The notes below the pieces were generated by a model that saw only the letters and a program-made list of their open reading frames with translations, did no database searches and was not told the origin of the DNA. Made by a program: the position numbers and the translations under genes. From assembly GCF_003334785.1 (NCBI RefSeq), contig NZ_QOWV01000014.1: a stretch of 64,000 nucleotides of DNA. One strand, given 5' to 3'. This document shows, in pieces, positions 13,058 through 34,329 of this stretch; positions within the stretch are counted from its first letter, which is position 1; each line of letters starts with the position of its first letter. This DNA comes from Escherichia coli. GTDB lineage: Bacteria > Pseudomonadota > Gammaproteobacteria > Enterobacterales > Enterobacteriaceae.

Positions 13058-14023
13058 ATGAGTAAACCCATTGTGATGGAACGCGGTGTTAAATACCGCG
13101 ATGCCGATAAGATGGCCCTTATCCCGGTTAAAAACGTGGCAACAGAGCGCGAAGCCCTGCTGCGCAAGCCGGAATGGATGAAAATCAAGCTTCCAGCGGA
13201 CTCTACACGTATCCAGGGCATCAAAGCCGCAATGCGCAAAAATGGCCTGCATTCTGTCTGCGAGGAAGCCTCCTGCCCTAACCTGGCGGAATGCTTCAAC
13301 CACGGCACAGCAACGTTTATGATCCTCGGCGCTATTTGTACCCGCCGTTGTCCGTTCTGTGATGTTGCCCACGGTCGCCCGGTAGCTCCTGATGCCAATG
13401 AACCAGTGAAACTGGCTCAGACCATTGCCGATATGGCGCTGCGTTATGTGGTTATCACCTCCGTTGACCGTGATGACCTGCGCGATGGCGGTGCCCAGCA
13501 CTTTGCGGATTGCATTACTGCCATTCGGGAAAAAAGCCCGCAAATCAAAATTGAAACTCTGGTGCCGGATTTCCGCGGTCGTATGGATCGTGCTCTGGAT
13601 ATTCTGACTGCAACGCCACCAGATGTGTTCAACCATAACCTGGAAAACGTACCGCGTATTTACCGTCAGGTACGGCCTGGTGCAGATTACAACTGGTCGC
13701 TGAAGCTGCTGGAACGCTTTAAAGAAGCGCATCCGGAAATCCCGACCAAGTCTGGTCTGATGGTGGGACTGGGTGAAACCAATGAAGAAATTATTGAGGT
13801 AATGCGCGACCTGCGCCGTCATGGTGTGACGATGTTAACGCTGGGGCAATATTTGCAGCCAAGCCGCCATCACCTGCCGGTTCAACGTTACGTTAGCCCG
13901 GATGAGTTCGACGAAATGAAAGCCGAAGCGCTGGCGATGGGCTTTACCCATGCTGCATGCGGTCCGTTTGTCCGCTCTTCTTACCACGCCGATTTGCAGG
14001 CGAAAGGGATGGAAGTTAAGTAA
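13058..14023 (+). CDS. lipA: lipoyl synthase (radical SAM)
   Basis: 321-aa ORF with CxxxCxxC radical-SAM cluster motif (CTRRCPFC). Confidence 0.95.
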
Positions 14024-14052
14024 TCCTGTAATAATTACTTACATCTGTCTGA

Positions 14053-14086
14053 TAAAAAACCCGCTTTTTGAAGCGGGTTTTTTGTA
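14053..14086. terminator. bidirectional rho-independent terminator between convergent lipA and tatE
   Basis: aaaaaacccgctttttgaagcgggttttttg: GC stem flanked by A-tract and T-tract. Confidence 0.8.
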
Positions 14087-14123
14087 TCGAACAAGATATT
14101 GAGGGAGCGTCCTGCTCGCCACG

Positions 14124-14327
14124 TCACTCTTTATGAGAGAGCTTTTCAGCCTGAAGATCAACGTCTGCGCCTTTTTTCGCCGCAGCATCGTCATCATTCA
14201 TCGCCTTCTTGAACCCTTTAATGGCCGCTCCAAGGTCTCCGCCCAGCGTACGTAACTTCTTAGTCCCAAACAGCAGAACGACCAGCGCCGCAACTACCAG
14301 CAGTTTGGTAATACTAATCTCACCCAT
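14124..14327 (-). CDS. tatE: twin-arginine translocase subunit TatE
   Basis: 67-aa [36 protein letters not shown]... Confidence 0.93.
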
Positions 14328-14455
14328 AGATACCTTCTTGACATATAACCGGCAACAGAACGCGCCTTAAAAACCAGAGAATATTAACGGTCATTCGACG
14401 CGCGCACACAATAGCAATCTGTAACAAGGTGAATCAAGCGCCGAGTAAAAAAACA

Positions 14456-15249
14456 TCATAATAATTGCGGCGGCGCAAAGCGACGGTTGTTTAAGACGGG
14501 CAGTTGCGCGCGCACCTGACGCACACGTTCGGGCGTCACTTCCGCCATAATGAGTGCAGGCATTTCTGACGCTGCCGCAATGGTGACGCCAAAGGGATCT
14601 ATAATCCGGCTTTGACCGATATTTTTGTTCCCGCACTCCCCCGCCGCCACCATATAACAGGTGGTATCCAGCGCACGAGCGGCAAGCAACGTTGACCAGT
14701 GATGCTCTTTGAGCGGCCCGCGAACCCAGGCGGCAGGAAGTACCAGGATTTCAGCTCCCTGTAATGCCTGTGCCAGCGCCAGCTCTGGAAAGCGTAAGTC
14801 ATAACAGGTCATCAGACCGACCTTCATCCCTTCCACCTCCAGTAACGGAGCGATTTCATTACCAGCATCAACACGGCGTGATTCCTGAATGGCAAATGCA
14901 TCATAGAGATGCAGTTTGGCATAACGGGCGACGATGTTTCCTGCCTGAAGTGCCACCAGCATATTCCATGCGCGCCCCGGCGTTGAAGGAACATGAATCG
15001 TCAGAATTGTCGTCATCATGTTACGTTTACTTTCTCGCCGTAAAGTCCGAGGAATTCGCCTTCCAGCAGCTGTGCTGATTTAACCGATAGATCTGCATCA
15101 TGATCATCGCGCGCCAGCAATGCTTCCGGCAGGACAAACAGCGATACGTCGTTTTCCGCCGCCTGCGCCATCAACGAGGCACAAATCTCAGCGTTCTTTT
15201 CCCACACAGATGTAACAGCAAACTGTCCTGCGGCAACCAGCATTGCCAC
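14456..15249 (-). pseudogene. ybeM: C-N hydrolase (nitrilase-family) gene interrupted by a frameshift
   Basis: Two adjacent minus-strand ORFs in different frames (15016..15249, 77 aa; 14456..15019, 187 aa) jointly encode one nitrilase-family protein; junction near 15016-15022. Confidence 0.8.
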
Positions 15250-15335
15250 CTCCTGTCAGAGTCGTAAAATTCGCCAACGACGATTATTCGGCGTTACACT
15301 TATCACTCATACAAATCAAATAGCAGGATTTTGCA

Positions 15336-15719
15336 GTGTTACAACTTCTTTTAGCAGTTTTTATTGGCGGTGGTACGGGAAGCGTGGCGAGATGGCTGTT
15401 AAGTATGCGATTTAACCCACTGCATCAGGCGATTCCGTTGGGGACGCTGACAGCAAACCTGATTGGGGCATTCATCATAGGAATAGGATTCGCATGGTTC
15501 AGCAGGATGACGAACATTGATCCAGTGTGGAAAGTATTAATCACCACCGGATTTTGTGGCGGTCTAACAACCTTCTCAACATTTTCGGCAGAAGTGGTGT
15601 TTTTGTTACAAGAGGGCCGCTTTGGCTGGGCATTACTGAACGTTTTCGTCAACCTTCTGGGGTCTTTTGCCATGACCGCACTGGCATTCTGGCTGTTTTC
15701 GGCCTCAACCGCACACTAA
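15336..15719 (+). CDS. crcB: fluoride channel CrcB/FluC
   Basis: 127-aa hydrophobic ORF, GTG start. Confidence 0.92.
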
Positions 15720-15721
15720 AG

Positions 15722-15756
15722 ACCAAAAAAAACCCGCTGATTAAGCGGGTTTTGAA
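15722..15756. terminator. bidirectional rho-independent terminator between convergent crcB and cspE
   Basis: aaaaaaaacccgctgattaagcgggttttgaa. Confidence 0.8.
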
Positions 15757-15772
15757 TTCTTGCTGACGTATC

Positions 15773-15982
15773 TTACAGAGCGATTACGTTTGCAGCAGAA
15801 GGGCCTTTGGCACCGTTAGTGATTTCGAACTCTACGCGCTGACCTTCAGCAAGAGTTTTAAAACCATTAGTCTGGATTGCAGAGAAGTGTACGAACACGT
15901 CTTTGCTGCCGTCTTCCGGAGTAATGAAACCGAATCCTTTGGACTCATTAAACCACTTAACGTTACCTTTAATCTTAGACAT
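15773..15982 (-). CDS. cspE: cold-shock-domain protein CspE
   Basis: ORF 15773..16012; start at internal Met ([20 protein letters not shown]...) giving 69 aa. Confidence 0.95.
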
Positions 15983-16156
15983 CAAAATTACCTTTACATG
16001 AAAAATAGACACAAATGCTGTGTCGGTTACCAGTACACCAATTGTGGTACGCTTTGTCCAGTGTAACTTTACTAAAAAGTGATAAAAGTCGCGTTATTTT
16101 TGATGTTACTTATTTTAGCTATTGATTTTAAAGAAGTTACTAAAACTTCATTTGTC

Positions 16157-16717
16157 TCAAAACTGAAAGCGCATCCAGGCAAAGTACACATTGCCATTGT
16201 TGTAGGTACCCGGAATGTAGGTCATCTGAAAAGTCACTGGGCCATAACCCACGGAGGCCAATGGCAGTAGAACCGGGAGAGGGATGTAATTCCAGTTATC
16301 GCGTGCCGTTACGCCAGCGGTGAATCCCAGACCTAAATGAAAATTTTCATCCGCCAGCGGTCGCCAGGTACTTTCCCATCCGTATCCGGCAATCGGTTCC
16401 CATTTGTTCCACGAGTCCTTAAATGCCATGGCATACAGGCCATGCCAGTTTCCTTTTTCATCCCAACGCGACAGGCCAAAACCGCCACCCCACGGTCGCT
16501 CGTTATAGCGATCGGTTTTTTCTTTGTCGTAAGCGAAACGTGCATGCCAGGTGATGGCAGGAATATATAAATCATAATGTTCAGGCTGTTGCCAGGTTTG
16601 TGCAATATTTTCTCTAAACGTTGTCATCCACTCATCTGCGTTAGCAAAAACTTTACCAACGCTGATTAACTGAATAAAAACAAAGGAAAAGATAGCGACA
16701 TATTTACTCACGTTCAT
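16157..16717 (-). CDS. pagP: lipid A palmitoyltransferase PagP (CrcA)
   Basis: ORF 16157..16741; start at [12 protein letters not shown]... giving 186 aa outer-membrane enzyme. Confidence 0.92.
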
Positions 16718-17202
16718 TTGTGACCATAAAACATTTATCAAAAATCTACTACTAGCATAGCAAAGCTACAATTAACATAACCTTAATAGACCCAACATAA
16801 AGAATAATCTGAATAGCTGCTCTATTTATTTCCGCTTGTTCAAGTTAAATATTTCCGCGCATCGATTAAAGATGATGCGTCGTTTTCTGCGATGGGAATA
16901 GTCAAAAAAGAAAAACCAAGTCTTTTTTGATGACAAAATGCAATCAAGGAAAAATTATTTTATTTTTTAACGAGATACAACAATCATCTTAACGAAGTAT
17001 ATAATATATATCGTCAACCTATGCTCATATTAGATTATTTTTTGAGCGCACAGCCGCAGCTAACACCATTGCAATTAACAAATTTGCATCAATCCACCAT
17101 CAATTTGCACACATTATTATGTGATAATTGCCAACCGCTAAATATGCGTTTTGTTATCTATGTATAAAAACAGCAACTTCAATGTCTTAATGGCAGTTTT
17201 TA

Positions 17203-17216
17203 TTGATTTTAATCAG
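17203..17216. promoter_or_regulatory. FNR-like site upstream of dcuC
   Basis: ttgattttaatcag matches TTGAT-N4-ATCAA at 9 of 10 positions, about 90 nt upstream of the dcuC start codon. Confidence 0.45.
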
Positions 17217-17305
17217 CATTCATCGCCAATTTATTGGGCATATTTTTTCCTTAAGCTTTAGGAATTTTTTATTATTTACTTTGGGGCCTGGAGACAGGAA
17301 AAATT

Positions 17306-18691
17306 ATGCTGACATTCATTGAGCTCCTTATTGGGGTTGTGGTTATTGTGGGTGTAGCTCGCTACATCATTAAAGGGTATTCCGCCACTGGTGTGTTATT
17401 TGTCGGTGGCCTGTTATTGCTGATTATCAGTGCCATTATGGGGCACAAAGTGTTACCGTCCAGCCAGGCTTCAACAGGCTACAGCGCCACGGATATCGTT
17501 GAATACGTTAAAATATTACTAATGAGCCGCGGCGGCGACCTCGGCATGATGATTATGATGCTGTGTGGATTTGCCGCTTACATGACCCATATCGGCGCGA
17601 ATGATATGGTGGTCAAGCTGGCGTCAAAACCATTGCAGTATATTAACTCCCCTTACCTGCTGATGATTGCCGCCTATTTTGTCGCCTGTCTGATGTCTCT
17701 GGCCGTCTCTTCCGCAACCGGTCTGGGTGTTTTGCTGATGGCAACCCTATTTCCGGTGATGGTAAACGTTGGTATCAGTCGTGGCGCAGCTGCTGCCATT
17801 TGTGCCTCCCCGGCGGCGATTATTCTCGCACCGACTTCAGGGGATGTGGTGCTGGCGGCGCAAGCTTCCGAAATGTCGCTGATTGACTTCGCCTTCAAAA
17901 CGACGCTGCCTATCTCAATTGCTGCAATTATCGGCATGGCGATCGCCCACTTCTTCTGGCAACGTTATCTGGATAAAAAAGAGCACATCTCTCATGAAAT
18001 GTTAGATGTCAGTGAAATCACCACCACTGCTCCTGCGTTTTATGCCATTTTGCCGTTCACGCCGATCATCGGTGTACTGATTTTTGACGGTAAATGGGGT
18101 CCGCAATTACACATCATCACTATTCTGGTGATTTGTATGCTGATTGCCTCCATTCTGGAGTTCCTCCGCAGCTTTAATACCCAGAAAGTTTTCTCTGGTC
18201 TGGAAGTGGCTTATCGCGGGATGGCAGATGCGTTTGCTAACGTGGTGATGCTGCTGGTTGCCGCTGGGGTATTCGCTCAGGGGCTTAGCACCATCGGCTT
18301 TATTCAAAGTCTGATTTCTATCGCTACCTCGTTTGGTTCGGCGAGTATCATCCTGATGCTGGTATTGGTGATTCTGACAATGCTGGCGGCAGTCACGACC
18401 GGTTCAGGCAATGCGCCGTTTTATGCGTTTGTTGAGATGATCCCGAAACTGGCGCACTCTTCCGGCATTAACCCGGCGTATTTGACTATCCCGATGCTGC
18501 AGGCGTCAAACCTTGGCCGTACCCTTTCGCCCGTTTCTGGCGTAGTCGTTGCGGTTGCCGGGATGGCGAAGATCTCGCCGTTTGAAGTCGTAAAACGCAC
18601 CTCGGTACCGGTGCTTGTTGGTTTGGTGATTGTTATCGTTGCTACAGAGCTGATGGTGCCAGGAACGGCAGCAGCGGTCACAGGCAAGTAA
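17306..18691 (+). CDS. dcuC: anaerobic C4-dicarboxylate transporter DcuC
   Basis: 461-aa polytopic membrane ORF. Confidence 0.92.
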   Translation: MLTFIELLIGVVVIVGVARYIIKGYSATGVLFVGGLLLLIISAIMGHKVLPSSQASTGYSATDIVEYVKILLMSRGGDLGMMIMMLCGFAAYMTHIGANDMVVKLASKPLQYINSPYLLMIAAYFVACLMSLAVSSATGLGVLLMATLFPVMVNVGISRGAAAAICASPAAIILAPTSGDVVLAAQASEMSLIDFAFKTTLPISIAAIIGMAIAHFFWQRYLDKKEHISHEMLDVSEITTTAPAFYAILPFTPIIGVLIFDGKWGPQLHIITILVICMLIASILEFLRSFNTQKVFSGLEVAYRGMADAFANVVMLLVAAGVFAQGLSTIGFIQSLISIATSFGSASIILMLVLVILTMLAAVTTGSGNAPFYAFVEMIPKLAHSSGINPAYLTIPMLQASNLGRTLSPVSGVVVAVAGMAKISPFEVVKRTSVPVLVGLVIVIVATELMVPGTAAAVTGK

Positions 18692-31955: not shown

Positions 31956-33521
31956 TTATGCAGTTTTGGTGCGAATCAGGTAGTCAAAAGCACTCAGAGA
32001 GGCTTTGGCACCTTCGCCAGTGGCGATGATGATCTGCTTGTACGGAACCGTCGTACAGTCACCCGCTGCGAACACGCCTTTCACGTTGGTTTCGCATTTC
32101 GCATCAATGATAATCTCGCCCATGCGGTTACGTTCGACTGCGCCTTCGAGCCAGTTGGTGTTCGGCAGCAGACCAATCTGGACGAAAATACCGGCCAGTT
32201 CGATGTTGTGAATATCGCCGCTGACACGATCTCGATATTCCAGACCAACGACTTTGCTGCCGTCGCCTTTCACTTCCGTGGTTTGCGCATTCAGAATAAT
32301 GTCGACGTTTTTCAGGCTGCGCAGTTTGTCCTGCAGAACCTGGTCGGCTTTCATTTCTGGCGCAAATTCCAGCAGCGTTACGTGCTCAACGATACCCGCC
32401 AGGTCAATTGCCGCTTCCACGCCGGAGTTACCGCCGCCGATAACCGCTACGCGTTTACCTTTAAACAGCGGGCCGTCGCAGTGCGGGCAGTAGGTCACGC
32501 CTTTGGTGCGATACTGATCTTCGCCCGGAACGTTCATGTTGCGCCATTTTGCACCGGTCGCCACGATAATGCTGCGTGCTTTCAGTACCGCGCCAGAAGC
32601 TGTTTCAATCTGATGCAGACCACCTTCAACTGCTGCTGGGATCAGTTTGCTGGCGCTCTGGCTGTCGATCACATCAACGTCGTATTCATCAACGTGAACT
32701 TTCAGTGCGCCTGCCAGCTTCTGCCCTTCAGTCTTCGGTACAGAAATGTAGTTTTCGATATCAACGGTATCGAGGATCTGACCACCAAAACGTTCGCCCA
32801 TCAGACCGGTACGGATGCCTTTACGTGCGGAGTAAATTGCTGCCGCTGCACCCGCCGGGCCGGAACCGACGATTAATACGTCATAAGCATCACGCTTGTT
32901 CAGCTCTTCTGCCGCACGTTTTTCCGCGCCAGTATCAATTTTGGCAACGATTTCAGTCAACGTCATGCGGCCCTGACCAAACTCTTTCCCGTTTACGAAC
33001 ACTGCCGGAACGCCCATCACGTTGCGATCGGTGATTTCGTTCTGGAAGGTGCCGCCGTCAATTGCAGTGTGCTTGATGCGCGGGTTCAGTACGCTCATCA
33101 GGTTCAGCGCCTGCACCACGTCCGGGCAGTTGTGGCAAGAGAGCGAGTAATAGGTTTCGAATTCAAAATCACCGTCAATATGGCGAATCTGCTCCAGCAG
33201 AGACTGCGCTTCTTTCGACGGATGACCACCGGTCCACAGCAACGCCAGTACCAGCGAGGTGAACTCGTGGCCCAGCGGGGAGCCTGCAAAACGTGGCCCC
33301 TGGTTGGAACCTGGGTTGGTGATCAGGAAAGACGGCTTACGCACCGGCAAGCTGTTATCTTCTTTAAAGGTGACTTTGTCTGACAGTTCTGCGATTTCAG
33401 CCAACAGTTCCTTGATTTCTGCCGATTTAGCGCTGTCATCCAGCGTGGCAATTAACTCAACAGGCTTGGTCAATTTCTCAAGGTAAGCCTTGAGTTGAGT
33501 TTTCATATTTGTGTCGAGCAT
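31956..33521 (-). CDS. ahpF: alkyl hydroperoxide reductase subunit F
   Basis: ORF 31956..33551; start at [10 protein letters not shown]... (521 aa); CxxC redox centres and FAD/NAD folds. Confidence 0.95.
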
Positions 33522-33574
33522 GTTTATCTCCTGGGCTTTAAACATCATCATGCAAGCGGCCTCTGCGGCTACCT

Positions 33575-33730
33575 GGATGCAGCTTGCATCATGGTGCGGG
33601 GAAGAAAATCGGGTGCCGCAGCACCCGAAGAATTAGGTGAATTTCCGAAGTATTTCGCGTCAGAGCAAGGCGGCTAGCCTGTGAATCCCCGGGAGCTTAC
33701 ACAAGTAAGTGACCGGGGTGAGCGGGCGAC
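33575..33730. repeat. ERIC/IRU intergenic repeat between ahpC and ahpF
   Basis: Contains gtgaatccccgggagcttacacaagtaagtgaccggggtgagcg, matching both halves of the ERIC core (ERIC1R and ERIC2 primer sites) within a larger imperfect palindrome. Confidence 0.8.
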
Positions 33731-33765
33731 GCCAACGCCGCTATGGCGTGAAAGACGAAGGAAAT

Positions 33766-34329
33766 TTAGATTTTACCAACCAGGTCCAGAGACGGAGCCA
33801 GAGTTGCTTCACCTTCTTTCCATTTAGCCGGGCAAACTTCACCTGGGTGAGAAGCTACGTACTGTGCTGCTTTGATTTTACGCAGCAGGTCAGACGCGTC
33901 ACGGCCAATGCCTTCAGCGGTAACTTCGATTGCCTGGATGATACCCTGCGGGTCAACAACGAAGGTCGCACGGTCAGCCAGACCTTCATCTTCACGCATG
34001 TTGTCGAAGTTACGGGTCAGGGCGCCAGTCGGGTCGCCGATCATCGCATATTTGATTTTAGCGATGGTTTCAGAGCTGCTGTGCCATGCTTTGTGGGTGA
34101 AGTGAGTATCGGTAGATACTGCGTATACGTCTACGCCCAGTTTCTGCAGTTCTTCGTAGTGGTCAGCAACGTCACCCAGTTCGGTCGGGCATACGAAAGT
34201 AAAGTCAGCCGGGTAGAAGAAGAAGACGCTCCAGCGGCCTTCGGTATCTTTTTCGGTGATTTCGATGAATTCGCCGTTTTTGAATGCCTGGTTTTTAAAA
34301 GGTTTAATTTTGGTGTTAATCAAGGACAT
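33766..34329 (-). CDS. ahpC: alkyl hydroperoxide reductase subunit C (2-Cys peroxiredoxin)
   Basis: 187-aa ORF with peroxidatic-Cys motif (FTFVCPTE). Confidence 0.96.

Follow-up and report, generated by a model that had tools for sequence, protein, structure and literature searches.

A genuine ERIC element upstream of a terminator and an RNase III hairpin in the ahpC-ahpF spacer of Escherichia coli

In Escherichia coli, ahpC and ahpF are co-transcribed, and ahpC is the abundant transcript of the pair. The spacer between both genes carries a long palindromic repeat, which raises the question whether this repeat, or another part of the spacer, sets the two genes apart. We addressed this question in a window of 64,000 nucleotides from E. 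coli (RefSeq assembly GCF_003334785.1, contig NZ_QOWV01000014.1), for which the original prediction had proposed that an ERIC/IRU element fills the spacer and may cause the unequal amounts of AhpC and AhpF. According to our analysis, with a probability of about 0.8, the repeat is a genuine member of the ERIC family but not the uncoupling device, and ahpC is uncoupled from ahpF by a terminator and an RNase III hairpin located downstream of it.

Anatomy of the spacer and identity of the repeat

The locus is of the E. coli K-12 type and 100% identical to K-12 W3110 and MG1655 at ahpC-ahpF. Both genes are encoded on the minus strand, and the following features are used throughout:

33766..34329, minus strand: ahpC coding sequence, 187 aa, stop codon TAA at 33768-33766 (from the ORF list; identical to K-12 RefSeq protein WP_000052796.1)
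33640..33766, minus strand: full-length ERIC/IRU element of 127 nt (from its inverted-repeat arms, the alignment to five non-orthologous and four orthologous copies, and the consensus hairpin)
33681..33724, plus strand: central ERIC core, the 44-nt inverted repeat quoted in the original prediction (41/44 match to the core)
33599..33628, minus strand: intrinsic terminator (attenuator), from the terminator scan, Term-seq ends at 33606/33604 and conservation in 12 Enterobacteriaceae
33542..33597, minus strand: long hairpin upstream of the ahpF ribosome-binding site, an inverted repeat that holds the published RNase III site and has ATGATGATG in its 3' arm (33551-33543)
33527..33532, minus strand: ahpF ribosome-binding site AGGAGA, a purine-rich block before the ATGCTCGAC start in the sequence, both conserved
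31956..33521, minus strand: ahpF coding sequence, 521 aa beginning MLDTNMK, ATG at 33521 (from the RefSeq annotation of the identical K-12 sequence and the cross-genus alignment)

With the RefSeq/K-12 start of ahpF at 33521, the spacer comprises 244 bp (33522-33765) and not the 214 bp given before. The shorter figure arose because the first in-frame ATG (33551) of a mechanically listed ORF, which extends ahpF by ten codons upstream to 531 aa, was taken as the start of the gene. Among the candidate starts, only the ATG at 33521 and its AGGAGA are conserved in the cross-genus alignment. The ATG at 33551 is part of three tandem in-frame ATGs (ATGATGATG, 33543-33551, minus strand) within the 3' arm of the RNase III hairpin; these are kept across genera as a hairpin arm, but their frame relative to the real ahpF start is not.

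The repeat also does not occupy the whole spacer, as had been stated, but its promoter-proximal half, the 127 nt on the ahpC side. The terminator hairpin and a further long hairpin share the remaining 117 nt. On the mRNA strand, the order from 5' to 3' is ERIC (33766-33640), terminator (33628-33599), a hairpin of about 55 nt (33597-33542) and the ahpF ribosome-binding site. In NC_000913.3, no repeat is annotated at the ahpC-ahpF site. E. coli copies of ERIC have already been catalogued, and the S. typhimurium ahpC copy was presumably part of the original ERIC/IRU lists; a full-text literature search for ERIC together with ahpC returned nothing relevant.

Membership of the ERIC family was tested empirically, with a consensus rebuilt from other ERIC copies. 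The element starts on the final A of the ahpC stop codon, its outer arms span 33640-33666 and 33740-33766, and it is closed by a 7-bp terminal inverted repeat (AAUUUCC/GGAAAUU). The core differs at three positions from the core consensus, which we take to be the region of the ERIC1R and ERIC2 primers; none of 100 shuffled sequences matched, and near-invariant columns in a ten-copy alignment back the 44-nt core independently. Similarity extends well beyond the core, with 76-78% identity over 92-98% of the query to the copies at ybiT and rpsB-tsf and partial matches at ybhI-ybhJ, ardC-mobH and btsT-hpaC. These non-orthologous copies lie at the 3' end of ybiT, in the rpsB-tsf, ybhI-ybhJ and ardC-mobH spacers and upstream of btsT. 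The ten-sequence alignment is colinear between the terminal repeats (columns 14 to 136), and its consensus folds into one long hairpin of 34 pairs, 16 of them with compensatory double-sided changes. BLAST of the 127 nt (E<=1e-3) found at least 41,233 places in 5,426 complete E. coli genomes, with a median of 8 and a maximum of 15 detectable places per genome, numbers that are lower bounds as diverged copies escape BLAST. The claim that a full ERIC/IRU element is present was therefore correct, also by the alignment outside the 44-bp core that the original prediction had named as its check.

The ERIC/IRU (RU-1) family has been known since 1990-91 (Sharples & Lloyd 1990; Hulton, Higgins & Sharp 1991; Wilson & Sharp 2006). 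The ahpC copy resembles it in length, core, 7-bp terminal repeat, long imperfect hairpin and an intergenic but transcribed position, and likewise in its dispersed copies and in strain differences at one locus, where the element is full, internally deleted or missing. It differs in that its left end overlaps a stop codon and that the flanking dinucleotides are AA and TT instead of the TA/TA of the family, which is found at the ybhI copy; the O157 allele, which lacks ERIC, does not represent a clean empty site. Predicted folding energies are -45.4 kcal/mol for the sense strand (z -3.4) and -68 for the antisense strand, and no shuffled sequence folds as well; the ahpCF mRNA carries the element in its weaker-folding orientation. 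Taken together, the ahpC-ahpF repeat is a genuine ERIC family member and differs in nothing essential.

Rfam contains no ERIC family, and the element only produced matches below the gathering thresholds, namely to V_AS5 (RF02818; 33641-33762, plus strand; 22.8 bits versus 96) and CssrA (RF02798; 33712-33775, plus strand; 19.1 bits versus 93). Because both models align end to end with ERIC, this suggests that the Vibrio V_AS5 and Shigella CssrA models were built on ERIC-like sequence and that the ahpC ERIC is not one of those sRNAs.

Transcript ends and RNase III cleavage downstream of the element

The original prediction invoked partial termination or processing within the spacer. Both do occur there, but in elements other than ERIC. 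The terminator stem (33628-33609) consists of UCGGGUGC-UGCG-GCACCCGA, with 8 bp including six GC pairs and a 4-nt loop, followed by UUUUCUU, and folds with -16.6 kcal/mol (z -4.55). Term-seq data from K-12 grown in LB to OD 0.4, in LB to OD 2.0 and in M63 list 3' ends at 639668/639670(+) (Adams et al. 2021, PMC7815308, supplementary file 1). The end at 639668(+) is found in the sheets for LB OD 0.4 and the third condition and the one at 639670(+) in the second sheet, with read counts of about 7,700-18,000 and the printed context ...CGGGTGCTGCGGCACCCGATTT (PMC7815308). Using the MG1655 locus as a ruler, 639668 corresponds to window position 33606, the third U, and 639670 to 33604, the C after the fourth U. 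The ends are thus located in the U-tract of the terminator, about 35 nt downstream of ERIC, and the structure combines a GC-rich stem-loop, a U-tract directly after it and in vivo 3' ends within the tract, as is typical of intrinsic termination.

In the three conditions, the curated lists, which hold dominant 3' ends and could miss weak ends inside ERIC, contain no other 3' end between 639500 and 639799 and none inside the ahpC ERIC (PMC7815308). Published 3'-end mapping therefore places the ends of ahpC outside the element in which they had been expected, the very outcome that the original prediction had named as its refutation. As an alternative, Rho-dependent termination was rejected, since no Rho region is listed for the spacer in supplementary file 2 of Adams et al. 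(PMC7815308). A literature search on RIL-seq/Hfq or read-through yielded nothing specific for the ahpC 3' UTR.

The second downstream element is a processing site. RNase III cleaves the ahpC-ahpF spacer at 639695 on NC_000913.3, as confirmed in vitro (Gordon et al. 2017, PMC5371410). This position corresponds to about 33579 in the window and falls into the upper stem of the predicted hairpin at 33597-33542 (-23 kcal/mol), whose arms are nearly invariant in 12 Enterobacteriaceae. The cut is 61 nt downstream of the 3' end of ERIC. Cleavage by RNase III stabilises the ahpC mRNA, with a half-life of about 14 min in the wild type versus about 6 min in an rnc deletion mutant, while the stability of ahpF is unchanged, and the hairpins remaining 3' of ahpC were proposed as its stabilisers (Gordon et al. 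2017, PMC5371410). Term-seq and RNase III data all originate from K-12. A scan of the spacer for an ahpF promoter found no sigma-70-like site; an internal promoter was rejected on this basis and because the 5' end known for ahpF results from the RNase III cut.

ERIC is therefore intergenic yet transcribed, as it lies between the ahpC stop codon and the 3' end at 33606, inside the ahpC 3' UTR. We propose that it is transcribed as the first 127 nt of a 3' UTR of about 160 nt, that most ahpC transcripts would end at the terminator/attenuator (33628-33599), and that an RNase III cut at the hairpin (33597-33542) would split the read-through transcripts and leave a stable ahpC mRNA. ERIC itself would be an old facultative passenger, a long imperfect hairpin in the weaker orientation that at most modulates the behaviour of the ahpC mRNA. 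Its influence on the AhpC:AhpF ratio would presumably be small or nil. The non-ERIC rest of the spacer resembles the intra-operon attenuators and RNase III sites that set stoichiometry at ahpC-ahpF and pflB-pflA (Gordon et al. 2017). Unlike ERIC, terminator and RNase III hairpin are each single-copy, specific to this locus and conserved between genera.

The competing idea that the ERIC hairpin is itself a partial terminator or a processing site that raises AhpC over AhpF is not without appeal: a long transcript hairpin (-45.4 kcal/mol, z -3.4) sits between two co-transcribed genes, and the ERIC at aceF-lpd does hold a Term-seq 3' end (127845). At ahpC, however, 3' ends are absent from ERIC in all three growth conditions and occur at a separate terminator instead, no U-tract follows the ERIC stem, the terminator scan does not call the element, and RNase III cuts well beyond it. 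Because the 3' ends and the RNase III site reside in neighbouring elements, the attribution of unequal AhpC and AhpF to ERIC is not supported, and we regard an ERIC terminator or processing site at this locus as very improbable.

The aceF-lpd copy deserves mention in its own right. Its curated 3' end at 127845(+) of MG1655 is within the element, about 10 nt past the core, and relative to its own mRNA the copy is in the opposite, more stably folding orientation. Because this copy has an end inside, ERICs in the more stable orientation may create RNA 3' ends, unlike the ahpC copy.

Allelic variation and conservation across Enterobacteriaceae

Complete E. coli genomes fall into three spacer alleles, with identities and allele counts taken from alignment summaries and hand counts. 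The full allele, a 244-bp spacer with the whole ERIC, is carried by about 1764 of 5423 genomes, such as those of K-12 and B. The short allele (about 2544 genomes, among them UPEC strains) has lost 74 bp from the middle of ERIC, which leaves a 170-bp spacer and a remnant in the form of a 53-nt mini-hairpin. The third allele, found in 1115 genomes including O157:H7, has a 128-bp spacer without recognisable ERIC. Terminator, RNase III hairpin and ribosome-binding site are identical across all three alleles, so that about 68% of complete E. coli genomes have no full ERIC next to unchanged neighbouring elements. Because most E. coli genomes lack a full ERIC but keep the terminator and the RNase III hairpin, ERIC is dispensable in most E. 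coli, a further point against ERIC as the terminator.

The short ERIC allele also occurs in E. albertii, where the deletion has almost identical boundaries, and the full copy of K-12 is closest to those of Salmonella and Superficieibacter. Moreover, the repeat arms of the full and short E. coli alleles differ at several positions. Since the short form is common to E. albertii and the arms differ, the pattern suggests that an old polymorphism or recombination, rather than recent deletions, is behind the alleles.

Outside E. coli, we compared the matches listed in a contig scan and added Salmonella by exact-protein look-up. A full ERIC at the same site and in the same orientation was found in Salmonella (241-bp spacer), Citrobacter werkmanii, Enterobacter sp. 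Bisph1, Superficieibacter electus and one MAG. The element is truncated in E. albertii and another MAG, and in Citrobacter sp. FP75 the fused repeat termini alone remain (AATTCGCT|GCGAATT); the O157 allele may be a similar remnant of the ERIC termini. Enterobacteriaceae bacterium RIT691, Leclercia adecarboxylata and Enterobacter asburiae carry REP/PU-like GC-rich palindromes at the position of ERIC (for example, GCCGGATGGCG...CTTATCCGGCCTAC). The start of the spacer, right behind the ahpC stop codon, looks like a hot spot for repeat insertion. REP/BIME palindromes (Higgins et al. 1982) share with ERIC that they are repeated between co-transcribed genes, here even with REP-like units at the same site in other genomes, but REP units have about 35-40 nt, are GC-rich and are unrelated to ERIC in sequence.

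In contrast to this range of full, truncated, vestigial, absent or REP-like replaced states, the terminator and the RNase III hairpin are present in 12/12 aligned Enterobacteriaceae and additionally in Salmonella, where the terminator stem shows compensatory changes (AUGGGCGC/GCGCCCAU). In the more distant Erwinia, Klebsiella sp. BIGb0407 and Mangrovibacter and in Enterobacter sp. Ag1, terminator and hairpin did not align. Because terminator and hairpin occur in all 12 aligned genomes while ERIC varies, these alignments indicate that the conserved architecture is terminator plus RNase III hairpin, with ERIC as an optional upstream insert.

Where it is kept, the element is unexpectedly well conserved. 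Against its Salmonella orthologue, the E. coli copy differs at 9 of 127 nt (about 93% identity), and against that of Superficieibacter at about six positions (about 95%), whereas E. coli and Salmonella can hardly be aligned over the roughly 45 nt of spacer that follow ERIC. Assuming that a mismatch column scores one half, mean column identities of 96% for ahpC against Salmonella, 94% for ahpC against Superficieibacter and 94% for the 5' region of ahpF against Salmonella read as about 92%, 88% and 88% identity, respectively. Compared with Salmonella, ERIC is therefore about as conserved as the ahpC coding sequence and more conserved than the 5' region of ahpF. Conversion from other copies was rejected as the cause because paralogous copies in the same genome are just 76-78% identical. 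This degree of conservation argues for constraint on ERIC where it is kept and leaves room for a modulatory role.

Possible roles of the element in the ahpC 3' UTR

One such role would be that of a selected 3' UTR module, in which ERIC aids the terminator or shields ahpC from 3' exonucleases after RNase III cleavage and is held by purifying selection. The identity of about 93% (Salmonella) and 95% (Superficieibacter) beside a scrambled spacer, the same site and orientation in five genera and the proposal of Gordon et al. that hairpins 3' of ahpC stabilise it are in line with this idea. Yet about 68% of E. coli genomes, E. albertii and Citrobacter sp. FP75 have only a truncated element or none at all next to unchanged neighbours, and the 3'-terminal structure of the main transcript is the terminator hairpin and not ERIC. 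In addition, strong conservation need not be specific to this locus: Hulton and colleagues are said to have described it in 1991 as a general property of ERIC copies. We consider it improbable that the ahpC ERIC is a selected cis-acting 3' UTR module maintained as an old three-allele polymorphism and not junk. If this were true, ahpC mRNA stability, terminator read-through or the AhpC:AhpF ratio would differ heritably between the alleles, and with them peroxide tolerance between lineages such as K-12, UPEC and O157:H7.

A different role is suggested by work on Yersinia, in which ERICs at the 3' end of genes are proposed to lower the upstream transcript by way of an RNase E site located in the 3' terminal repeat, and in which the orientation of the element matters (De Gregorio et al. 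2005, via the reviews PMC2229807, PMC3184786 and PMC10969869). Applied to ahpC, terminating ribosomes would open the lower part of the hairpin and thereby uncover an A/U-rich RNase E site, for which GAAAUACUUCGGAAAUU in the right-hand terminal repeat is the putative candidate, and decay of ahpC would lower AhpC in strains with the full element. Because an exposed RNase E site lowers the upstream message, this model runs opposite to the original prediction. The ahpC ERIC is indeed comparable to the Yersinia stop-codon copies in that it abuts the upstream stop codon and is co-transcribed with both genes. Its hairpin starts with the final stop-codon base, it is in the weaker-folding orientation, the other stop-codon-abutting copies examined (ybiT, ybhI) share this orientation, and the element is strongly conserved across genera. 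In contrast to what the model demands, the ahpC mRNA of K-12, with a full ERIC, is unusually stable (half-life about 14 min), and the dominant 3' end lies beyond the element and beyond the proposed RNase E site, so that most transcripts keep an intact ERIC. Furthermore, the direction of the effect is wrong for AhpC > AhpF, and the assignment of the ahpC copy to the A or B orientation is one that we infer. We therefore judge a destabilising function at ahpC to be improbable. With respect to the upstream gene, the ahpC, ybiT and ybhI copies are oriented alike and the rpsB-tsf and btsT-upstream copies the opposite way; the shared orientation of the stop-codon copies fits the rule that De Gregorio and colleagues reportedly gave for Yersinia.

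Our preferred reading remains that of a facultative ERIC passenger in front of the elements that uncouple both genes. Within it, ERIC may still quantitatively affect the stability of the ahpC mRNA, the efficiency of adjacent termination or translation termination. The element, the locus, the terminator and the RNase III site are already known or follow from published data, and the useful result is the corrected anatomy of the spacer, from ERIC to terminator, RNase III hairpin and ribosome-binding site. On this reading, the repeat deserves no credit for the discoordinate expression of ahpCF, and the natural full, short and absent alleles offer a ready-made system for studying the function of an ERIC in a highly expressed 3' UTR.
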